A stretch of DNA of 42,793 nucleotides from a virus (lineage: Duplodnaviria > Heunggongvirae > Uroviricota > Caudoviricetes): the IMG/VR virus record IMGVR_UViG_2667527787_000008. One strand, given 5' to 3'. Below the pieces are notes generated by a model that worked only from the letters and a program-made list of their open reading frames with translations, had not been told where the DNA came from and searched no databases. Of the stretch, positions 1 through 42,462 are shown in pieces; the stretch's first letter is position 1, and every line of letters starts with the position of its first letter. Position numbers and translations under genes: made by a program.

Positions 1-1194
1 ATGATCACCGACACAAAGCTCAGGAAGGCGCTCGGCAAGAAAAGAGATGATATCGAGATTATTTCTGATTCGCACGGGCTCAACGCCAGAATCAGCCAGG
101 CCGGAAAAATATCATTTTTCTATCGGTATCGCTGGGCCGGTAAAGCGGTAAAACTCAATGTTGGTGATTATCCTGCAATGAGTATCACCCAGGCAAGAGA
201 GCGTCGCCAACAATTCAGAAACTGGTTAACTGAGGGACTGGATCCGCGAGAGCAGGTGAAGCTGGATAAGCAGACCCGACAGGAAGCGATGTCCGTTGCC
301 GAAGCGTTCAATTACTGGATTGAAAGGCACTGTATCGCTAACGGGCTAGTTAAAGTCGATTACTATCGCCAGGTGTTTGAGAAACATATCGCCGAACCGA
401 TGAAGAATGTCAAAGTCGATAACACAGCGAAAATGCACTGGATCAACGTCTTCGATTCTATAGAAAGCAGGGTGATGGCTCATTACATGCTTTCGCTGTG
501 CAAACGGGCCTTTAGGTTCTGCGTTAACAGAAGTGTGATCGCCTCAAACCCACTCGAGGGATTACTGCCATCTGATGTCGGGCAAAAGCCTAAAAAGAGA
601 ACTCGCAGGATGGACGATGACGATCTGCGCAAAATCTATCAGTGGTTGAAAAGCCATATGTCGATAGAGTCCGTTTTCCTGGTGAAATTTATTATGCTTA
701 CCGGATGCCGTACGGCTGAGATTCGACTTAGTGAGAGATCATGGTTTCGATTGGATGATAATGAGTGGGTCGTGCCTGCGGGCAGTTATAAAACTCGGGT
801 ACATATTAGAAGGGGACTCTCAGACGCCGCCGTTAACCTGGTCAGAAATCACCTCAAGAAAATAAACACCAATCACCTGGTGACTTCACAACGTAAAATT
901 GATGGCGGGATCAAAGATTCGCCCGTTCATTCACCTGTGGCATCCAATTACGCCCGTTCTATTTGGAATGGAACAGGTATGGCAGAGTGGTCGCTTCATG
1001 ATATGAGGCGGACGATAGCCACAAATCTCTCTGAGTTAGGTTGCCCGCCGCACGTAATTGAAAAGCTGCTCGGGCATCAGATGGTGGGGGTTATGGCGCA
1101 TTACAACCTTCATGACTATATCGATGATCAGAAACACTGGCTCCGCGTTTGGCAGAGCCATCTTGAAGAGATCATCGGAGAGCCCTTCAGTTAA
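1..1194 (+). CDS. int: Tyrosine recombinase / phage integrase, P4-type with N-terminal arm-binding domain
   Basis: 397 aa ORF; N-terminus [14 protein letters not shown]...[10 protein letters not shown] typical of P4-family integrases; C-terminal catalytic region with HDMRRT, LLGH and HY motifs. Confidence 0.85.
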
Positions 1195-1433
1195 TTTATC
1201 TTCTTTTTATCCTCCCACTCTTTGATTGACTCAGAGCGCCAGCGGTTAGGGTTGCCGGGCCAGTCAGGGGGTGGGAACGGGCATACGAAGCCCCGAGGCA
1301 TTGTGTCTGCACTTTGCCATGACCAAAGGGTTTTGCGTGAAATTTTGTAGCGACTGGTCAGGTCTGACGTTACCAAAATATCATCCATAGCTCTCTCCAG
1401 TTGCCCGTTCGGGCCATTCAAAATCTTTTTCAA
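1191..1433 (-). CDS. AlpA/Xis-family excisionase-like winged-helix regulator
   Basis: 80 aa; motif SRKTLWSWQ...[21 protein letters not shown] resembles the AlpA/Xis pattern (FP.P...RW...W); adjacent to int. Confidence 0.55.
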
Positions 1434-1672
1434 CCAACCTGCCCGGGCAGGGAGCGGAGACGGCGCATGCCGGTCATCGCTGTGGCCACGTAGCTCGCCT
1501 TTCGGTTCACCACCTCCACCCAGACTTTCACGCCTTCAACCTTCACCGTATAAGTCTCTTTCATCTTGCTTCGCCCATAGTCGCCATATGTTTGCAAGTG
1601 AGCTGCCAGCGCGATGTCGCATGCTTGGCGAGCTAAAGGTGATTGCTTACTTCCTCGATTGATCAGTCGCAT
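1430..1672 (-). CDS. Hypothetical protein, leftward early operon
   Basis: 80 aa ORF co-oriented with and overlapping the xis-like gene by 4 nt. Confidence 0.35.
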   Translation of the reverse strand: MRLINRGSKQSPLARQACDIALAAHLQTYGDYGRSKMKETYTVKVEGVKVWVEVVNRKASYVATAMTGMRRLRSLPGQVG

Positions 1673-1710
1673 ATAATCTCCTTGAGGGAGGGTTACCCCT
1701 CCCGGTCTCG

Positions 1711-2829
1711 TCAGGCCACGTATTCCGGTTTCATATCCGCCAGGGTGATGCTGAATTGATCGTGCAGTTCATCGCCTAAGTGACGCTTTGAAGATGCAAG
1801 CATGCGCTCGGCTTCAGCGAACCGTTCGGATGCATGCGGCTCGTCGGGCTGGGGCAGGGATTTAATAGCCTCCTCAACCTTGTTGCGTGCATCCACTAGG
1901 TAATAACGCTTTACGGCTTTGTTTTTCAGCTCGGTGAATAGTGCGGATCCCAGCGTAGCTTTCGCCGTTTCAATGTCGGCACGCAGCGATTTGGCGCTAT
2001 CCACGTCCTGAGCAGATTCGATGCGTTCGCGGAAATCATCGGCAAGAGAGTCGACATTTACCGACGATTCCTGTGCGCTTTGCGTGGTTGTGACGGTGTC
2101 ACCTGAGATATCAGCCAGGCTAACGCGTTGCGGCGTTGGGTTGATCTCTTTTTCTGTGCGCTGTTCAATCTCATCAGGGGTGTACACACCAAGAACAACT
2201 GCAGGGCAATACAGGCGCGCCCAGTATTTGAGTGCCAGATAAGCGATCTGCTGTTTCGGGTTTGATACCCAAAGTGGAGAATTACGTGTGATTACGCTGG
2301 AGAGGAAAACAGGCTCTCCCCAGGTGATATCACTTTCACCGCGAATAACGGCACCTACCCGTACCGACAGTCCTTGTTCATCAGCACTTTCCCAACCGCG
2401 TACCATTTCTTTCTTGTCGTACGTCCCGCCACCTTTCGCAGGCTTTTTAACGGTTATCTCGCGGCTGCTGGCACATTTCGACCAGTCGCCCTCGTACTCA
2501 TAGTGAAAGCGGCCAACGATGGCGTTTGAGCTGGAGATCACCGCATTAACCAGTTGCGCTTCGTATCCCAGGACACCGTTAACCAGGTGCGTCTTTTGCG
2601 CCACGGCGTAAGGGTTCATACCCCACTGCATCGCCTGCATGATGATGGCCATGCAGTCTGCCGGATTGCCGCGGAGGTGCTCAGGCACCGTTACGGCTGC
2701 CTGTGCCATCAACCCGGCGACAGACTGAAGCTGGGTTAAAGCCTGCACGTTGAAAATGGCATTGCTGGCTGAGATCGTGTTTGGAGTCTGCTGTTCAGCG
2801 GTTACGATATTCGTGTTTTCCATCATCAT
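1711..2829 (-). CDS. RecT/Red-beta-like single-strand annealing recombinase
   Basis: 372 aa ORF immediately downstream of the RecE-like gene; motif QWGMNPYAVAQKTHLVNGVLGYEAQL resembles the conserved core of RecT/Bet annealing proteins. Confidence 0.5.
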   Translation of the reverse strand: MMMENTNIVTAEQQTPNTISASNAIFNVQALTQLQSVAGLMAQAAVTVPEHLRGNPADCMAIIMQAMQWGMNPYAVAQKTHLVNGVLGYEAQLVNAVISSSNAIVGRFHYEYEGDWSKCASSREITVKKPAKGGGTYDKKEMVRGWESADEQGLSVRVGAVIRGESDITWGEPVFLSSVITRNSPLWVSNPKQQIAYLALKYWARLYCPAVVLGVYTPDEIEQRTEKEINPTPQRVSLADISGDTVTTTQSAQESSVNVDSLADDFRERIESAQDVDSAKSLRADIETAKATLGSALFTELKNKAVKRYYLVDARNKVEEAIKSLPQPDEPHASERFAEAERMLASSKRHLGDELHDQFSITLADMKPEYVA

Positions 2830-2834
2830 TCCCC

Positions 2835-5800
2835 TTATGCCTGAGTACGCAGCGCTTCAAGGCGGCGCAGGTCGAAGTCGTTCAGTTCGTCGGTGTAGTC
2901 AGCAGTGATTGGCGCTGGCCATTCACCTGTGTCGAATCCGGTTGCGATATTGCGCATCGCTTTGCGGTACTCGAGCATACCCAGCTCCAGTAGTTCAGCG
3001 GATGCCTCGATGATGGCGATCCAGTGGTAGTTCTCGTCTTTGTTGACGAAAATCCAGAAGAACTGATCCAGCGCTGCGGTTTCGCAGTACATAGCCGCGC
3101 TCAGGTGATAATCACGTTCAATAATTTCCCGGTGTAGCCTGGCGCGCAGGCTTTCCTGCTTAACATTCCACATGCTGATGGTTTTCAGGTCAGCACCGAT
3201 ACGCACGCCGTCTAGGTCGATCTCAAGGTCAGGGCGCACACGAACTTCCAGTCCCGTCTCCTCGTCAAAGCCAAAGTAGCTCACCTCAACGGCGCGGCTC
3301 GGGTGGGTTAGCAGCATGCCTGCGGTCGGGTGCGAGAGCAGTGCTGACTGAATTGCCTGCGCGGTGGCAAGTTGCTGGTGGGTAACCAGCACTTTCCCTT
3401 CCGGGTTGTTGCGCCACGCATCGAGCAGCTCGTCGGCGAACACTGCATCTGGTTTGACTGCCTTCACGGCCTGAATCAGATCGGCCTTCGTGCCAGAGAC
3501 TTTCAGCGGTTGCAGCTTCTGAGCTTCCTGCGCGACCAGGTCAGGATTGATAATCGCAAGTTGTTCGAGTAGTGCGTCGCGGCTGCCGCTGGTTTTAATC
3601 TGCGCTGGCAGGGTGGCGTTGTACTCTTTGATGCACGCCTTCATTGCTGTTGCTGTCTTCTTCTGATCTGCATCGATACGTTGGAATTCAGCTGGCAGCG
3701 CCATATAGTTCTGCGCCGTTTCATCCAGGCTAGCGCCCAGCGGCACCAGCGCTGGCAGGGTGGCGTTGTATTCATCCAGCAAAGCTTTGATATCGTCTGC
3801 GCTCAGTTGCGCTGGCAGGCTGGCGTTGTACTCATCAATAAACGCGCGGATCGTTGCCGTGGTGGTAAATGCACCTTCCGGAATTACGGGTTCAACGCTA
3901 AATTCTTCATCGAGCTGTTCTGGCTGCAACGCCAGCGCATGTACCAGGTTTCCCATGTCCAGCACTGAGGAGCGCTCTTTGACGATGGTTTTCTCAACGT
4001 GGCGCGCATTGAAGTACATCAGCGAAACGCGCGCATCTTTTACCTGGGTGGAACTGATGCCGTTGGCAGCGTGGTAAACCTCGTTCGGCAGACCTTCATA
4101 GCGCCCAGGCTCGAAGTAATCGGGGTAAAAAACAGCTTGTTCGTCAGATTGCGCCTCTGGCTCGACGTGTGCCAAAACTGGTTCAGTCTGGTTTACAGAA
4201 TCGCTATTTTGAGCGACAGATTCCGTATTTTGGTTTACATCGGCCTGCTGGCCGGGATGTGACTCTTCACCAGTTTCCAGACTGCTTTCGCCTGACTGCA
4301 TTTCATTACCAACATTTTTTTCATCACTGACAGTTTCTTGAACCTGCACATTGCTGGTGGTTTCCGTAGCCTGTTTCGTGCCATGAGTTGCTGAGTTCTG
4401 CAGTAAAGCCGTAACATCGAATATTCCGTTGCCGACATTTTTAACCAGTTCTTGTTCGGCTTTATGTGGTTGTGCTGTCGCTTCCTCTGCGCGGCGGCGT
4501 GCTTCTTCTTCACGTACGCGTTGCAGGTTCTCTTCGTGAGTGCAGAAGGGTTTGCGTGGAGACTCCTTACTTTCAGGTTGGGGAATTTCCTGTGTTGCGG
4601 GCTCAGCTTCATGCAATGGCAATAACTCAACAGCAGCATTAAACGCAGCAGTCATGGTCCGGTTAACAAACTCCAGGTGAGCGACAGGAGTTAGATGAAT
4701 ATTTTCCGGCGCGATACGTATCAGGTTAAAAATAGCTGTGCGGTTAACGCCAAGAACGCCGGGTTGATTGCGCAGAATGCTGCTCCATGATTTCCACGGT
4801 TCTTCTTTTTTGGTCACGATTTCTTTAGCGCGACGAAGAATGCTGCCCGGGATCTCGAAGTGGTTGAAGTCCATAGGCAGAAGGGCACATGCAATCTCTA
4901 AATCGAGAGTGTCAAGGGTATGGTATGCATCAGGTCCACGGTCAGTGACGTAACCGCCGTTGGCATTGGTTCCGGAATCAGTACGCTGAACACTACTGAT
5001 GTGATTACCGGCAGCCCATTCACGCGCCAGGATGCCACGGTCAATGTAATCAGTCGCCGCCCACATTCTGGTGAAACGGAGTACCAGCGCGAGTTCGTGA
5101 CGCTTGTCCTGGCTGAACACTTTGCGAATGGCATCGGTGTAGCGCCACAGGTCTTTGGTGTCGTAACCCTTCACGTCCGGGCAGTTCTCAGCAGCTAACA
5201 GCAAGTTCTGGACGTAACTGTTATCAGTGTCCATCTCCAGCGCGCCGATAGCTTCGTACTCTTCGCGGGTTACGTGGTGGCGCAGTTCGTCGGCGGTGAA
5301 CTGGGAAAGCAGTTGCTTACGAAACGGCATCTGCACTACCGGGTAGAGGGTTGAGTCGTCGTCGTGTTCGTCCAGCGTGATGCCAGCGGTTTCTGGCAGC
5401 GTTGACTCAGTAGTTATGTGACTATCAACGGTCTGAGCCGTTTTCTCGTCAGAGTTTTCAGCTGTGACTTTTGGCATCCAGGTGCGGTCATCGTTCTGCA
5501 GTTCGTAGCGTTTGCACCAGGTGTAATCCACTGCGCCTTCTTCCGGCAGGTCGTCATATACCGGGAAATCGGTGCGGATTGGTTTGGCATAATCTTTACC
5601 GCGGCCAGTTTCTTCAATTCCGGCTTCTTCCAGTGCCACATCGAGTTGGAGATTGGCGCGCGCTACACTTTTCGCAGTGAACCAAATCACTGCATCTTTC
5701 TTGCCAGACTTCTGACTGGCTTTTATCAGATGGAAAAATTCCATGTGAGATCCTCTTTTTTGAGTGTTAGAATCCCCGGGCCAGAGATAGCGCCCATTGG

Positions 5801-5849
5801 ATGTTTTTTGGTTTGGTATAAATTCCGGTGTAACTTTGGTCGGTGGCAC
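2835..5849 (-). CDS. RecE-like exonuclease VIII (large multidomain protein, C-terminal nuclease domain)
   Basis: 1004 aa ORF, GTG start; position upstream of the RecT-like gene as in Rac recE-recT; central tandem EYNA(S/T)LPA repeats. Confidence 0.5.
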   Translation of the reverse strand: MPPTKVTPEFIPNQKTSNGRYLWPGDSNTQKRGSHMEFFHLIKASQKSGKKDAVIWFTAKSVARANLQLDVALEEAGIEETGRGKDYAKPIRTDFPVYDDLPEEGAVDYTWCKRYELQNDDRTWMPKVTAENSDEKTAQTVDSHITTESTLPETAGITLDEHDDDSTLYPVVQMPFRKQLLSQFTADELRHHVTREEYEAIGALEMDTDNSYVQNLLLAAENCPDVKGYDTKDLWRYTDAIRKVFSQDKRHELALVLRFTRMWAATDYIDRGILAREWAAGNHISSVQRTDSGTNANGGYVTDRGPDAYHTLDTLDLEIACALLPMDFNHFEIPGSILRRAKEIVTKKEEPWKSWSSILRNQPGVLGVNRTAIFNLIRIAPENIHLTPVAHLEFVNRTMTAAFNAAVELLPLHEAEPATQEIPQPESKESPRKPFCTHEENLQRVREEEARRRAEEATAQPHKAEQELVKNVGNGIFDVTALLQNSATHGTKQATETTSNVQVQETVSDEKNVGNEMQSGESSLETGEESHPGQQADVNQNTESVAQNSDSVNQTEPVLAHVEPEAQSDEQAVFYPDYFEPGRYEGLPNEVYHAANGISSTQVKDARVSLMYFNARHVEKTIVKERSSVLDMGNLVHALALQPEQLDEEFSVEPVIPEGAFTTTATIRAFIDEYNASLPAQLSADDIKALLDEYNATLPALVPLGASLDETAQNYMALPAEFQRIDADQKKTATAMKACIKEYNATLPAQIKTSGSRDALLEQLAIINPDLVAQEAQKLQPLKVSGTKADLIQAVKAVKPDAVFADELLDAWRNNPEGKVLVTHQQLATAQAIQSALLSHPTAGMLLTHPSRAVEVSYFGFDEETGLEVRVRPDLEIDLDGVRIGADLKTISMWNVKQESLRARLHREIIERDYHLSAAMYCETAALDQFFWIFVNKDENYHWIAIIEASAELLELGMLEYRKAMRNIATGFDTGEWPAPITADYTDELNDFDLRRLEALRTQA

Positions 5850-35718: not shown

Positions 35719-36069
35719 TTACTCGTCTTTAAAACTTATAATTTTGTACTGCTCCAGTACTTCTGAAAGCTCCTTTGATGTCAGATTTTGTATTTCGATC
35801 GTACCTTTTTCAGTGGTTACCGTTATTTTTTTTGATGATCTGGTCTGTAACCATTTTCTCGCTATCGATGCAATGGCGATACAAGCTGGTGATGATGTGA
35901 TAACGGTAATAGATATTTCGAGAATTGTGCCAATAGCGCCAGGAGAATCACCCGTTCTGACTCTTTTACTTACTACATAGTCATTAGCGGGTATGTTATC
36001 CTGGATTACAGGAAGTAACTCTTTCCAAATAGCTGGAGTAAATTTTATGGTTGTTTCTGATTTTGGCAT
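35719..36069 (-). CDS. Hypothetical antisense moron protein (116 aa) inside the baseplate operon
   Basis: ATG at 36069; AT-rich; convergent with the secreted-protein gene; no recognisable family. Confidence 0.45.
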   Translation of the reverse strand: MPKSETTIKFTPAIWKELLPVIQDNIPANDYVVSKRVRTGDSPGAIGTILEISITVITSSPACIAIASIARKWLQTRSSKKITVTTEKGTIEIQNLTSKELSEVLEQYKIISFKDE

Positions 36070-38497: not shown

Positions 38498-39174
38498 GTA
38501 GGTACACGGATCTAATCACTAACTACCACGCCACTAAGCCGAAATACCTCGATCACATCGATCTTAGTACCCGTCCCCTGATTGATATCACGTCAGCCAC
38601 AAGGGGCCTGGTGAGTGCGTTTGACATTGATACGGCTGTTGGCGTGCAACTCGATATTCTCGGACTCTGGATTGGACGTAGCCGTATAGTCAGCCAGCCC
38701 ATTAGTGGCGTTTATTTCAGTTGGGACACGGAGGGGCTCGGATATGACCAGGGCGTATGGCAGGGGCCATATGATCCTGACTCCGGCTATACGACGCTTA
38801 GCGATGATACCTATCGCACTATTCTGAAAGCAAAAATCGCTATTAACAACTGGGACGGGCGTAACGACTCGCTTCCGGACATTCTTGACACTGCCACAGT
38901 GGGTTCGGGCCTGAAGATGCAGATCGTCGACAATCAGGACATGACGATATCGGTCTGGGTATTTCCCGAGACTGATATTTCTGATGTGTCTCTCGAACTG
39001 ATCGCCGCTATCAAACAGGGCTATCTCACCGTTAAAGCCGCTGGCGTCTGGGCCGGTGATGTTGAAATGCCTTCGGTTGAAACACCGTCCGAAGGAACAA
39101 AATTCTTTGGATTTGACATGGATAACGAATACATCGCCGGTTTTGATGACGGCGCATGGGGGAGATTACTTTAA
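38494..39174 (+). CDS. Baseplate/tail protein (I-like, position of e14 ymfQ)
   Basis: 226 aa ORF, overlaps the upstream stop; precedes the tail fibre. Confidence 0.5.
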   Translation: MSRYTDLITNYHATKPKYLDHIDLSTRPLIDITSATRGLVSAFDIDTAVGVQLDILGLWIGRSRIVSQPISGVYFSWDTEGLGYDQGVWQGPYDPDSGYTTLSDDTYRTILKAKIAINNWDGRNDSLPDILDTATVGSGLKMQIVDNQDMTISVWVFPETDISDVSLELIAAIKQGYLTVKAAGVWAGDVEMPSVETPSEGTKFFGFDMDNEYIAGFDDGAWGRLL

Positions 39175-39953
39175 TGGCTGGAACTAATGATTTTAAAGCG
39201 TTTGCGACAGATGCTAATGCAAATGTTACCTCGCAGGAGGAATGGGAGACGCTAACCGCACTGAAGAAAGGATTCTCCTCGGGTAAAGCATCCAGCGCAC
39301 AGGTCAGTAAAGCGCTGCGCCAACCGTCGACGATGGCGGCTGTACTGGGGCAGTTTATCGCGAACGCCGAACTGGACGCGCTCGATGATGGTGACGTTGA
39401 TGGACTGGTGGCAAAGCTGGCGACAGCGATTACCACAAACCTTGGTTTGGGAGAAGGCTCAGCATTACCCGTTGGCGTACCTGTTCCGTGGCCTTCAGCC
39501 ACACCGCCGACAGGCTGGCTGAAATGCAACGGTGCCGCTTTTTCTGCTGAAGAATACCCGGAACTGGCAAAGGCTTACCCGACAAATAAATTGCCTGATT
39601 TACGTGGTGAGTTTATTCGTGGCTGGGATGACGGGCGTGGAGTGGATAGCGGTCGTACTTTATTAACGAATCAAGAGCATGCAGTAATTTCTCATAATCA
39701 TGGAATACCTACAAAAGTGGGGTCAGTTACTAATATCCCGTATGGAATAGAACAGGTTATATCTGATGAAACCATTTTTTCATCAGCAAAAACAGTTGGT
39801 GTGGATTACTGGTCTAACAGTGAAAGAGTTTTTACTTATACCTCTGGTGGAAGAAATGGTGCTGAATCAGTGAGTTCACCTGATGCCTCCTCTTTAATTA
39901 AAGAAACCAGACCACGGAACCTAGCATTTGCGTATATCGTGAGGGCTGCATAA
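39174..39953 (+). CDS. Tail fibre protein (constant N-terminus plus currently expressed variable C-terminus, Sv)
   Basis: GWLKCNGAAFSAEEYPELAKAYPTNKLPDLRGEFIRGWDDGRG tail-collar-type motif; inversion crossover site at codon about 96; AT-rich 3-prime part. Confidence 0.7.
   Translation: MAGTNDFKAFATDANANVTSQEEWETLTALKKGFSSGKASSAQVSKALRQPSTMAAVLGQFIANAELDALDDGDVDGLVAKLATAITTNLGLGEGSALPVGVPVPWPSATPPTGWLKCNGAAFSAEEYPELAKAYPTNKLPDLRGEFIRGWDDGRGVDSGRTLLTNQEHAVISHNHGIPTKVGSVTNIPYGIEQVISDETIFSSAKTVGVDYWSNSERVFTYTSGGRNGAESVSSPDASSLIKETRPRNLAFAYIVRAA
39432..39457. other. Left crossover site of the invertible tail-fibre segment (gix/hix-like)
   Basis: ACCACAAACC-TT-GGTTTGGGAGAA; inner half-site repeated in inverted orientation at the right site. 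Confidence 0.5.
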
Positions 39954-40555
39954 TGGTGAAAGCAAAATTAAACAGTGCGTTTATTGCCACCGTGGCAGGT
40001 GAAATCACTGTGTACAACTACCGGGGCGACACCCGCGAATACATATCCTCATCGGTTGAGTATCTGCCTGTGGGGGTGGGTATTCCTGCCAATTCCTGTA
40101 CCGATGCGCCCGGCACACATAAAGCTGGTTATGCAATCTGCCGTTCTGCAGATTTTAACTCATGGGAATATGTGCCAGACCATCGCGGTGAAACGGTATA
40201 TAGCACTGAAACAGGAGAATCAAAAGAAATCACAGCTCCGGGTGATTACTCTGAAAATACAACTACTATCGCCCCGTTAACGCCATTCGATAAATGGGAT
40301 GGTGAGAAATGGGTGACCGATACTGAGGCACAGCATAGCGCCGCAGTAGACGTGGCAGAAGCACAGCGCCAGTCGCTGATTGATGCTGCTATGGCTTCCA
40401 TCAGTCTGATTCAGCTGAAATTGCAGGCCGGGCGGCAACTGACGCAAGCAGAAATCACTCGCCTTAACGCTGTGCTGGATTACATTGACACGGTGACGGC
40501 AACAGATACCAGCACCGCGCCGGATGTCATCTGGCCTGAACTGCCGGAGGCGTAG
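39953..40555 (+). CDS. Tail fibre assembly protein (Tfa)
   Basis: 200 aa; C-terminal motif LNAVLDYIDTVTATDTSTAPDVIWPELP typical of the tail fibre assembly family. Confidence 0.7.
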   Translation: MVKAKLNSAFIATVAGEITVYNYRGDTREYISSSVEYLPVGVGIPANSCTDAPGTHKAGYAICRSADFNSWEYVPDHRGETVYSTETGESKEITAPGDYSENTTTIAPLTPFDKWDGEKWVTDTEAQHSAAVDVAEAQRQSLIDAAMASISLIQLKLQAGRQLTQAEITRLNAVLDYIDTVTATDTSTAPDVIWPELPEA

Positions 40556-40970
40556 GCCATTCAATATCTGGAGCACTGGAGGTATCAACCAGTTCCAGTG
40601 CGTCCAGATAATCCAGCCACAAATTATATTGCGCCAGTTCCTCACTTTTCAGACGACCAATCGCCGCTTTGCCAGGCCACTGATGAGTATTGATGTAGGT
40701 ATTGACTTCAGAAACCAAAGATATTTTTTTCATTTCAGCCGTCAACACCTCATCCTCTTTTGAAGGGGGTGGGGAATTAATCCATACTGGCCGTCCTGAA
40801 CTGTCAGCGCCAATTTCTTTCCCTTCTGGATGCAGCCCAAGAAATTGCTCATATGTTTCTCTGGTAATTTCAATAACATCATCAGGAAGCGTTCCCGCAT
40901 CCTCATATTCTGGAAACAATTCTTGCAGATAAAAACTTTTACTTCCGGGTGAAAAGAATACTGAGTTCAT
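40527..40970 (-). CDS. Alternative tail fibre assembly protein (Tfa-prime) within the invertible segment
   Basis: 147 aa; C-terminal LWLDYLDALELVDTSSAPDIEWPTPP paralogous to Tfa; convergent with and overlapping tfa. Confidence 0.65.
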   Translation of the reverse strand: MNSVFFSPGSKSFYLQELFPEYEDAGTLPDDVIEITRETYEQFLGLHPEGKEIGADSSGRPVWINSPPPSKEDEVLTAEMKKISLVSEVNTYINTHQWPGKAAIGRLKSEELAQYNLWLDYLDALELVDTSSAPDIEWPTPPAVQAR

Positions 40971-40972
40971 TC

Positions 40973-41425
40973 TTACCGTCCAATGATTAATGCTGAGACG
41001 CTGGTATCTGAAGGAAAGGCTGCATTCAGTGGTTTGTCGACTTTGAACACAATCGTATTATTCCCCCTGACAGCGGCAAAAGAACAAACCGCAGTCGCGT
41101 ATGAACCTGTAATATTACTGGATACACCACCATAAGCTGTTGTTGATACCAGAGGGATAACGCCCAGCACCTTATTAGGAAATACAAAGGGCAATGTGGC
41201 TGTGGCAATATAAGACTTATTAGAACCTGTAATGGCATAAGCATTATCAGTCATTCCATTCATCGCCACCGGGCCGCTTATACTTACAGTAACCATCTGA
41301 ATGATTAGCCCGTCAGGTTGACGAATCACAAAATTTCCATTGCCACCAGTAACCGTCCAGAAAGACATATCAGGGATTTGGTTTTCCCCGTTGCCCACAT
41401 TCCGTTTTGCCGCTTCTCCCAAACC
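40973..41425 (-). CDS. Promoterless alternative tail-fibre C-terminal segment (Sv-prime)
   Basis: Begins with GLGE encoded by GGTTTGGGAGAA, the same as the current junction in the expressed fibre; Gly/Thr/Ser-rich fibre-like composition. Confidence 0.6.
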   Translation of the reverse strand, partial: GLGEAAKRNVGNGENQIPDMSFWTVTGGNGNFVIRQPDGLIIQMVTVSISGPVAMNGMTDNAYAITGSNKSYIATATLPFVFPNKVLGVIPLVSTTAYGGVSSNITGSYATAVCSFAAVRGNNTIVFKVDKPLNAAFPSDTSVSALIIGR

Positions 41426-41439
41426 AACCTTTTTTATAA
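41414..41439. other. Right crossover site of the invertible segment (gix/hix-like)
   Basis: TTCTCCCAAACC-AA-CCTTTTTTATAA resembles Hin/Gin crossover sites; about 60 bp upstream of the invertase start. Confidence 0.5.
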
Positions 41440-41498
41440 CCATCAAAAATCTGGTGATGCTTCGCCGTTTCTCCTGTTTTCATAACAGGAGAAATCCC

Positions 41499-42047
41499 AT
41501 GATTTACGGTTATGCCCGAGTATCAACAAACCACCAGGACACTGAATTGCAACTAACGGCGCTCAAGTCAGCGGGTTGTGAGAAAATTTTTGAAGAGCAT
41601 GCCAGCGGGAGGAAATCGAATCGGCCGGTTCTAAAACGGCTGATCGCCACTATGCAGCCGGGGGATGAACTGGTGGTCTGGAAGCTGGACAGGATAGGCC
41701 GCAACGTTCTGCATGCGCTGTTGATGTTCCAGCAGTTACAGGAAAAGGGTATCAACTTCCGCAGTATTACCGATGGCGTGGATCTCAAAACAGCCAGCGG
41801 CCGCTATAACTTTCGTAACATCCTTTCCGCAGCACAATATGAATCTGATCTTAATAGCGAACGTACCTTAGCAGGGCTGGCCGTAGCCAGGGCAAAAGGG
41901 CGAGTTGGTGGTCGCAGGCCTAAGTTCACGGATGAGCAATGGCGGGAAATGGGGGAGCGGATGGCAACCGGTGAATCACGACAAAGCGTATCAAAAACGT
42001 ATGGAGTAGGGCTCTCAACTCTGTATAAAAAGTTTCCAGCTAGCTGA
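41499..42047 (+). CDS. Serine DNA invertase (Pin/Gin/Hin/Cin family)
   Basis: 182 aa MIYGYARVSTNHQDTELQLTALKSAGCEKIFEEHASG... with catalytic Ser in YARVST and C-terminal HTH; adjacent to the invertible segment. Confidence 0.85.
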   Translation: MIYGYARVSTNHQDTELQLTALKSAGCEKIFEEHASGRKSNRPVLKRLIATMQPGDELVVWKLDRIGRNVLHALLMFQQLQEKGINFRSITDGVDLKTASGRYNFRNILSAAQYESDLNSERTLAGLAVARAKGRVGGRRPKFTDEQWREMGERMATGESRQSVSKTYGVGLSTLYKKFPAS

Positions 42048-42067
42048 TAACGGGAAAGAAACAGAGA

Positions 42068-42105
42068 AGGGCACAAATATTGTGTACTTTAATGTGCCCT
42101 TTAAT
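42068..42105. terminator. Putative bidirectional terminator between invertase and yciI; probable prophage right boundary region
   Basis: Stem AGGGCACA / TGTGCCCT with long loop, T-rich on both sides. Confidence 0.3.
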
Positions 42106-42165
42106 TTATTGATTGGTGGTTGAATTGTCCGTAACTTTTTGATTTAAGTGCAAATTTCTAATAAA

Positions 42166-42462
42166 TTAGAACGCTTTCTTAAATGGTTTCACTGAAACGT
42201 GTTCATAGACTCCTGCCGCTACGTACGGGTCAGCATCGGCCCAGGCCTGAGCTGCTTCCAGCGATTCAAATTCAGCAATAACGGTTGAGCCAGTAAATCC
42301 CGCAGCCCCTGGATCGTTACTGTCTACCGCTGGCATTGGACCAGCTGTCAACAAACGACCTTCATCATGCAGTAACTGTAAACGTGCTAAATGTGCCGGA
42401 CGAACGGAAAGGCGTTTTTCGAGGCTATCAGCTTTGTCTTGAGCGTAAATAACATACAACAC
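42166..42462 (-). CDS. yciI: YciI-like protein (chromosomal)
   Basis: About 98 aa from GTG with AGGAG ribosome-binding site; adjacent to and divergent from tonB as in E. coli. Confidence 0.6.

Follow-up and report, generated by a model that had tools for sequence, protein, structure and literature searches.

Does a pair of short inverted repeats bracketing about 2 kb of tail-fiber coding sequence mark a DNA switch that still turns, and if so, which enzyme turns it? The question is raised by a 42,793-nucleotide (nt) stretch of viral DNA (IMG/VR record IMGVR_UViG_2667527787_000008; Caudoviricetes), hereafter called the window, near the right end of which an initial annotation made from the sequence alone had proposed an invertible tail-fiber segment of the Pin/Gin type. 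Invertible fiber segments are textbook biology. Our analysis makes it highly probable that a site-specific inversion switch is at work in this locus and supplies a temperate, myovirus-type prophage of Escherichia coli with a choice of two tail-fiber tips. This reading is carried by two crossover sites, the genes between and beside them, an in-frame fusion created by inversion, and the occurrence of both orientations in otherwise identical sequence.

A split fiber gene with two in-frame tips

The fiber gene (39174-39953, plus strand) encodes a protein of 259 amino acids with a Collar domain (Pfam PF07484; E value, 1.7e−15), and its start overlaps the stop codon of the upstream DUF2612 (Phage_Wedge1) gene. 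The first 89 codons of the open reading frame (ORF) (39174-39441, plus strand) form a constant N-terminal part outside the segment, presumably the baseplate-attachment part, and the expressed variable C terminus, of the collar type (39442-39953, plus strand), lies inside it. It is followed by tfa (39953-40555, plus strand), which encodes a tail-fiber assembly chaperone of 200 amino acids for the collar tip (Caudo_TAP, PF02413; E value, 5.5e−32). On the minus strand, tfa′ (40527-40970) encodes the 147-amino-acid assembly chaperone for the alternative tip (Caudo_TAP; E value, 2.7e−28). The two chaperone genes are convergent and overlap by 29 nt; each tip is therefore provided with its own Caudo_TAP gene, and the two sets face each other on opposite strands. 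The silent alternative fiber C terminus occupies minus-strand positions 40973-41427 within the cassette, in a frame that stays open to 41443. Its match to the Pfam model Gp53-like_C reached 24.4 bits, just below the 24.9-bit cutoff, and in relatives where this tip occupies the expressed position it bears a gp53-like annotation; in the records seen, the silent tip itself was annotated as a hypothetical protein. The initial annotation had assigned the current fiber C terminus and tfa to the plus strand and tfa′ and an alternative tip to the minus strand, and ORF and Pfam analyses located all five genes, including that of the invertase, at the places it gave. NCBIfam held no specific model for the invertase or the fiber parts.

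Both variable parts open with GGT TTG GGA GAA (GLGE) in the same codon phase, and the minus-strand frame running through the right-hand crossover site reads ..VGLGEAAKRN... The alternative tip has no start codon of its own inside the cassette and corresponds to fiber codons 90 to 240 after inversion. When positions 39442-41427 were reverse-complemented in silico, an uninterrupted fiber of 240 amino acids was obtained, composed of the 89 constant residues, LGLGE, and the gp53-like tip. The fiber gene is thus split into a constant part outside the segment and two alternative tips inside it, both in frame (259 and 240 amino acids), as had been claimed. The alternative tip had also been described as promoterless. 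A σ70-like promoter scan identified 6 sites, against 5.7 in shuffled sequence, with no evident promoter for the silent tip, which is weak evidence. Promoter and terminator matches together were no more numerous than in shuffled sequence, so the description agrees with the lack of enrichment but is not proved by a scan that cannot decide the matter.

Crossover sites

The 14-mer TTGGTTTGGGAGAA occurs as two exact copies in the 42.8-kb window, at 39442-39455 (plus strand) and 41414-41427 (minus strand). With up to two mismatches allowed, four matches were found where 0.31 was expected by chance, a number that none of 100 shuffled sequences reached. The longest inverted repeat reported for the region by a repeat finder was 39430-39456/41413-41439 (27 nt, 81% complementary, 1,956-nt spacing), and the exact inverted repeat shared by the two crossover sites is 15 nt long (TTGGTTTGGGAGAAG). 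The sites themselves are 26 base pairs (bp) in length (12 + 2 + 12), are inverted with respect to each other, and bracket a cassette of 1,986 bp. The left site (39430-39455) reads TTACCACAAACC-TT-GGTTTGGGAGAA, with the central TT at 39442-39443; it falls inside the fiber coding sequence, beyond codon 89, with GLGE encoded by its inner half. The right site (41414-41439) reads TTCTCCCAAACC-AA-CCTTTTTTATAA, with the central AA at 41426-41427, and begins 85 nt 5′ of the invertase ATG. A site at the same distance from the invertase gene is also present in phage mEp237, and the right-site region is conserved in phi80 as well. Of the coordinates first proposed, those of the right site were exact and those of the left site (39432-39457) lay 2 nt too far to the right.

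Sites were taken from the reference records of e14 (pix), Mu (gix), and P1 (cix) by one pattern scan, and the window sites aligned with all of them position by position. The pix sites of e14 are CTCTCGAAAACC-TT-GGTTTGGGAGAA and TTCTCCCAAACC-AA-CGTTTATGAAAA, the gix sites of Mu are TTATCCAAAACC-TC-GGTTTACAGGAA and TTCCTGTAAACC-GA-GGTTTTGGATAA, and the cix sites of P1 are CAATCCTAAACC-TT-GGTTTAAGAGAA and TTCTCTTAAACC-AA-GGTATTGGATAA. The window therefore holds two imperfectly palindromic 26-bp sites with a matching central dinucleotide (TT/AA), as is characteristic of the DNA-invertase family. The exact 15-nt repeat and this alignment bear out the proposal of two inverted repeat copies inside Hin/Gin-like sites around approximately 2 kb.

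The remaining two of the four 14-mer matches, at 5579-5592 and 5808-5821, are direct near-copies (TTGGTTTGG[C/T]ATAA) within a RecE-like exonuclease gene and are similar to the inner half of a crossover site. They were rejected as crossover sites, being in direct orientation and having no half-site or palindromic partner, and probably occur by chance.

Both orientations in public assemblies

Exact-sequence look-ups in a public protein collection identified the native 259-amino-acid fiber as WP_057688093.1, on 32 contigs, and the predicted flipped fiber of 240 amino acids as WP_244473369.1 and others, on 16 contigs. Inversion should also leave a silent collar fragment of 175 amino acids adjoining the invertase, and this too was matched exactly (WP_072145017.1). 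At the nucleotide level, GCA_001413475.1 (JRRR01000017.1) aligned to the window with 39442-41427 inverted at 100.000% identity over 7,620 nt, with 0 mismatches and 0 gaps. Against the native window, the same assembly gave three 100% identical blocks (plus, minus, plus) that overlapped by the 15-nt repeat. GCA_001413485.1 (JRRS01000180.1), which has the adjacent accession number, shared 100% identity with the native window over 3,603 nt. Both orientations thus exist in nature in otherwise identical sequence, and since these loci differ only in the orientation of the segment, the inversion at the predicted sites was very recent. The segment has flipped recently at these sites. A single orientation in all populations, the outcome that the initial annotation had set against its own proposal, was not borne out, as both the flipped fiber and the flipped locus are exactly represented in public assemblies.

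The breakpoints of the flipped public locus fall inside the exact repeat (39442-39456), whose length limits placement of the crossover to a stretch of 15 nt; exchange exactly at the central dinucleotide would follow from the mechanism of Hin and Gin.

In at least 14 complete RefSeq Escherichia coli genomes, a constant part with 99 to 100% identity was joined to different variable parts. The expressed tip among these was of the collar type in at least four and gp53-like in six, with other tip types in the remainder, and those inspected carried the same invertase at the same chromosomal yciI site. A homologous switch in the opposite orientation was found in Citrobacter phage Omnitron. When the flipped 3.25-kb sequence and 500-nt junction probes were searched against RefSeq complete E. 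coli genomes, no record covered ≥80% of the flipped query; the exact allele is absent from that set.

Several sequencing runs contained stand-alone cassette contigs of 1,986 to 1,995 nt that began and ended exactly at the central dinucleotides (TTGG...CCAA), and partial proteins of the same clusters were found on contigs of ∼1.84 to 1.99 kb. From reads that contain both orientations, a k-mer (de Bruijn) assembler isolates the segment, since its graph then branches at the outer edge of the exact repeat. The collection lists the exact tfa protein in 196 blocks, and for 62 of these the longest carrying contig was shorter than 2 kb; the corresponding figures were 1 of 56 blocks for the junction-spanning native fiber and 1 of 21 for the flipped fiber. 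The stand-alone contigs are evidence of switching within cultures for this family of cassettes, and are not proof for the copy in the window.

The PinL-type invertase

The gene for a serine DNA invertase of 182 amino acids (41499-42047, plus strand) lies outside the segment, beside the right crossover site. Its product matched the Pfam Resolvase domain (E value, 3.6e−39) and HTH_7, and was collinear with the Gin structure 3UJ3 over residues 1 to 181 (E value, 1.4e−56). The catalytic residues R7, S9, R42, R65, and R68 are conserved, with the nucleophilic serine corresponding to S9 of Gin and S10 of Hin. It is therefore a small serine recombinase with an N-terminal catalytic domain and a C-terminal helix-turn-helix (HTH), as in the DNA-invertase family. 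It was 100% identical to the invertase of mEp237 and 99.5% identical to PinL of phi80 and HK225. Identity to the classical enzymes was much lower (PinE, 55%; Gin and Cin, 52% each), and these are 73 to 88% identical among themselves. The adjacent serine invertase gene named in the initial annotation is thus present, but its kinship to Pin and Gin is not close, and the enzyme is of the phi80 PinL type. Assignment to the PinR/PinQ type was rejected, as identity to K-12 PinR was only 36%.

Members of the PinL clade were seen in the window, phi80/mEp237, Omnitron, mEpX1, SKA5, and KpGz_1, with 44 to 61% identity to the Gin/Cin/Pin clade, and at least 1,000 contigs carried the window enzyme. A literature search for functional work on pinL found none; the clade is uncharacterized and is the only part of this locus with real potential for novelty.

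A 12-bp hairpin was predicted by RNA folding immediately upstream of the invertase gene (41467-41495, plus strand), with the invertase Shine-Dalgarno sequence AGGAGA (41487-41492) in its 3′ arm. Folding of 41440-41515 gave −24.9 kcal/mol (z = −4.5 relative to 200 shuffled sequences), and the homologous repeat in phi80 is annotated as IR3. On this model, the hairpin over the ribosome-binding site may act as a translational brake that keeps expression low.

Proposed mechanism and its regulatory part

Fiber codons 1 to 89, outside the segment, would always be transcribed with the late baseplate operon, and the receptor-binding C terminus and its chaperone would be supplied from within the 1,986-bp cassette. 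By analogy with Hin and Gin, the PinL-type invertase would bind the two 26-bp sites as dimers. Both sites would be cut at the central TT/AA, one half of the tetramer would rotate by 180 degrees, and religation would leave the cassette reversed. The orientation in the window would yield the 259-amino-acid collar-type fiber with the 200-amino-acid Tfa, and the other orientation the 240-amino-acid gp53-like fiber with the 147-amino-acid Tfa′. A population of lysogens could then release two kinds of virions with different receptor specificities, as the anatomy of the locus and the precedents of Mu, P1, and e14 suggest. We infer PinL as the catalyst, its strand-exchange chemistry, and the host-range consequence from these analogies.

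Several observations weigh against this reading or parts of it. The orientation evidence is drawn from public assemblies, and ongoing switching in the source culture is an extrapolation from them. The stand-alone contigs represent allelic cassettes, 94 to 96% identical, whose carrier prophage may be a different one. PinL is named as the catalyst by analogy, and E. coli often carries several Pin-like invertases that can act in trans; PinQ of the Qin prophage, for example, inverts the P segment of e14 (PMC12529663). The remaining points concern control by Fis. Residues Q151, R154, and L155 of Hin, in helix 1 of the DNA-binding domain, make up a Fis-contact patch described as "uniquely conserved among DNA invertases" (McLean et al., PMC3798978). 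Gin, Cin, PinE, the P2-like invertase, and the enzyme of YP3 all have Q, R, and L at these positions, where the window enzyme has E, E, and R. The classical recombinational enhancer is ∼65 bp long, has a Fis site at each end, and lies ∼100 bp from one crossover site, within the 5′ portion of the gene for the invertase (PMC3798978). A GNNYRNNWNNYRNNC scan with 46- to 50-bp spacing identified no convincing Fis-site pair in that portion of the window gene, although the degenerate 15-bp Fis consensus scan has little power, as it also gave no convincing pair in gin, cin, or pin. Since the Fis contacts are not conserved, the regulatory part of the Hin/Gin model may not be transferable.

Further positions of known regulatory role were also compared (positions compared in the window enzyme: 50, 104, 106, 108, 114, 150, 153, and 154). 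Basic residues of helix B in Hin (K47, K/R48, and K/R51) contact enhancer DNA (PMC3798978); the window enzyme has K, R, and A, keeping two of the three, with A in place of the classical K/R at the position of Hin K51. Helix-E residues F105, F106, and M109 of Hin hold the dimer inactive until activation by Fis (Chang et al., PMC4513852). The corresponding residues in the window enzyme are N, F, and I, so that only the equivalent of F106 (F105 in the window enzyme) is kept, and the classical H at Hin H107 is replaced by R. In Hin, the substitution F105N causes faster, partly Fis-independent inversion in vivo and strong SOS induction (PMC4513852). All seven sequences compared from the PinL clade share the helix-E signature N/S, R, I, Y, in contrast to F, H, M, M in Gin, Cin, and Pin. 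The residue at the position of Hin F105 is Asn in the clade and Ser in KpGz_1, and the Fis patch varies within the clade. Synonymous-site conservation along the invertase gene showed no clear enhancer peak in either clade.

Judged from these residues, the invertase appears to be Gin type in its chemistry and sites and to depart from the Fis-dependent family in two of its defining regulatory features. A more speculative proposal, which we consider rather unlikely, is that PinL-type invertases are a separate natural clade of fiber-segment invertases with diverged regulatory surfaces, including in the window enzyme a charge-reversed Fis-contact patch (Q151E, R154E, L155R), activated without Fis or by a different contact or host factor.

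The invertase of mEpX1 (JQ182727.1, 3501-4049) is a natural recombinant, joining ∼60 N-terminal residues of the classical Pin/Gin type to a remainder identical to PinL. Should the classical enhancer be located toward the 5′ end of the gene, the hybrid may combine it with a PinL body.

Alternative explanations

An inversion switch driven by its adjacent PinL-type gene is not the only way to account for the flipped loci. The segment could instead be flipped by an invertase supplied in trans by another prophage of the host, with the adjacent gene silent or inactive. Cross-action between invertases is documented by PinQ, as noted above, and the same inner half-sites (TTCTCCCAAACC) occur in e14 pix and in a P2-like cassette that is served by a classical Pin-like enzyme. 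The Shine-Dalgarno sequence of the window gene is buried in a stable predicted hairpin, and the pinL gene of phi80 itself is truncated, to 172 amino acids. The window gene, in contrast, is full length with all catalytic residues present, and PinL adjoins the cassette at the same position in every relative inspected, whichever cassette is carried. The outer half-site beside it (…AAAGG before the core) is also conserved together with the gene in mEp237. Action in trans is thus improbable as the explanation.

A second alternative concerns the benefit of flipping, which in a lysogen could go mainly to the host if one of the two fiber proteins blocked adsorption of other phages. The precedent is e14, in which the inverted P segment creates a chimeric fiber, StfE2, that blocks adsorption of T2 (Kirigo et al. 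2025, PMC12529663), and the window cassette is homologous to that segment, with 85 to 90% identity over the alignable parts. Unlike e14, however, the prophage in the window is apparently complete, and the classical host-range role is available to it and sufficient; the fiber genes of an uninduced prophage are also normally not transcribed. Protection of the host as the main benefit therefore has a low probability, and a protective side effect of the switch is possible by analogy with StfE2.

That the switch is a fossil in the window strain, with the database orientations left by rare past events or by RecA-dependent recombination between short repeats, is very improbable: the evidence comes from assemblies, most of which, where they have the exact allele, span the segment in a single unbroken contig (such as the one of 53.5 kb from SRR1631198), but the flipped and native loci are identical at all 7,620 and 3,603 positions compared, the flipped form of the exact allele is on at least 16 contigs from independent sources, the cassette-only contigs end at the central dinucleotide, and the exact repeat of 15 nt is shorter than the 23 to 27 bp that RecA-dependent exchange usually needs. 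The reading of the locus as a working switch, with PinL as its probable catalyst, was retained for the comparisons below.

Comparison with known switches

The closest described arrangement is the P segment of e14 with PinE in E. coli K-12. Both have a short fiber with its constant N terminus outside the segment, a tip with tfa, a convergent tfa′ with a silent tip, and an invertase outside. The inner half-sites (TTCTCCCAAACC, and GGTTTGGGAGAA on the other strand) and the central TT/AA are identical, and the likeness extends to the cassette DNA over the parts that can be aligned. The two differ in their outer half-sites and in their invertases, which share only 55% identity. The K-12 cassette is in the opposite orientation, and e14 is a cryptic remnant at icd, whereas the window holds an apparently complete prophage at the phi80 attachment site. 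The G segment of Mu with Gin and the C segment of P1 with Cin follow the same Sc/Sv/U plus Sv′/U′ principle, with 26-bp gix or cix sites within the fiber gene and the invertase outside. They differ from the window in their invertases (52% identity), and Mu also in the length of its segment (∼3 kb against 2.0 kb) and its central dinucleotide (TC/GA against TT/AA). The gene layout and the alignment of the sites thus support the original placement of the locus in a known class (Mu G, P1 C, e14 P, and p15B Min types), as an intact switch.

Phages phi80/Lula, HK225, and mEp237 share with the window the invertase (99.5 to 100% identity), the right-hand crossover region, and the attP/attR and int-xis module. 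They differ in being siphoviruses that keep a remnant only, whereas the window has a complete two-tip cassette that has flipped. In phi80 (JX871397.1, locus 4733-5519), the minus strand immediately upstream of pinL holds a pseudogene fragment with a collar domain, and pinL has lost the end of the HTH through its truncation. In mEp237 (locus 4916-5549), a full-length invertase gene and one site are present, and a pattern scan found no partner site with the same central dinucleotide. By these comparisons, phi80 carries a decayed remnant of the switch module of which the window holds the intact form.

A different relationship was seen with a P2-like prophage of E. coli 20A24 (NZ_CP147044.1, 5007-6992), which carries a 1,986-bp cassette 99.95% identical to that of the window (1 mismatch). 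There it is attached to an unrelated constant part, in a fiber of 519 amino acids, and accompanied by a classical Pin-like invertase of 188 amino acids with 54% identity to PinL. Identity between the two loci ends within ∼6 nt of the central dinucleotides. Within the family to which the window belongs, by comparison, the cassette of the closest prophage reaches no more than 82 to 92% identity. Since cassettes in different families differ by a single nucleotide, with identity ending near the dinucleotides, and the cassette within the family differs more, whole cassettes can be taken to move between phage families. The sequences indicate that such swaps use the crossover sites as joints and that the exchange with 20A24 was recent. 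Cassette exchange via crossover sites was reportedly proposed for the fibers of Mu, P1, P2, and p15B by Haggard-Ljungquist in 1992 and Sandmeier in 1994.

Carrier prophage

The window comprises almost a whole prophage, which runs from int, entered 15 nt inside the gene, to attR. The annotated attP core of phi80 is precisely where similarity to that phage stops, which places the attR core, a phi80-type attachment site in the 3′ end of yciI, at 42171-42187, where the element ends on the right. Beside yciI-tonB, the prophage occupies the attachment site used by phi80. Positions 41361-42187, corresponding to phi80 locus 4863-5689, are 93.7% identical to the pinL region of phi80 and 96.0% identical to that of mEp237. 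At the other end, positions 1-1666 share 99.1% identity with int-xis of phi80, and positions 1-4674 share 95.6% identity with mEp237.

The structural genes are myovirus type and not phi80-like, and include those for a DUF3383 protein, which is probably the sheath (homologues are labeled XkdK-like), Baseplate_J, and a DUF2612 wedge protein. Distant relatives of these genes occur in Yersinia phage YP3, Salmonella phage SEN34, and Citrobacter phage Omnitron, and isolated phages offer no close relative; the best match, YP3, covered 19% at 78% identity. By its matches, the prophage is a chimera, in which an int-xis-RecT-RecE module of the phi80/mEp237 type (1-4674) and a pinL-attR end are joined to myovirus-type structural genes. 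With genes from terminase to baseplate, int, xis, and intact att ends, it appears complete.

Within the baseplate cluster, a gene for 116 amino acids with an EACC1 domain (Effector Associated Constant Component 1; E value, 1e−6) lies on the opposite strand (35719-36069, minus strand). It is conserved at this place in several relatives and replaced in others, and looks like an inserted accessory gene ("moron"). In NZ_CP035860.1 and NZ_CP134376.1, the prophage family is reduced to a stump, in which a truncated baseplate J gene is joined to a YdaT-like toxin gene; the constant part of the fiber, a cassette, and the invertase are retained beside yciI.

Implications

As an invertible fiber segment, the switch adds an example and not a principle. 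It is a clean natural case, with both states available at 100% identity and the crossover narrowed to a 15-nt exact repeat without experiment. It also provides the intact form of a module of which phi80/Lula, a phage in wide laboratory use, retains only a stump consisting of pinL and a collar pseudogene, and the apparently purposeless invertase of phi80 is explained because the module there is the stump of an intact switch. The same 2-kb cassette behind a different constant part and invertase in a P2-like prophage suggests that the crossover sites double as joints for swaps of host-range cassettes. For phage engineering and the prediction of host range, prophage annotation pipelines should report both fiber forms. 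If the PinL clade does prove to be Fis independent, the window enzyme, widespread in E. coli, would be nature's equivalent of the Fis-independent mutants made in the laboratory, and would reveal how the chromosome is protected from damage by such an enzyme, perhaps through the hairpin over its ribosome-binding site.

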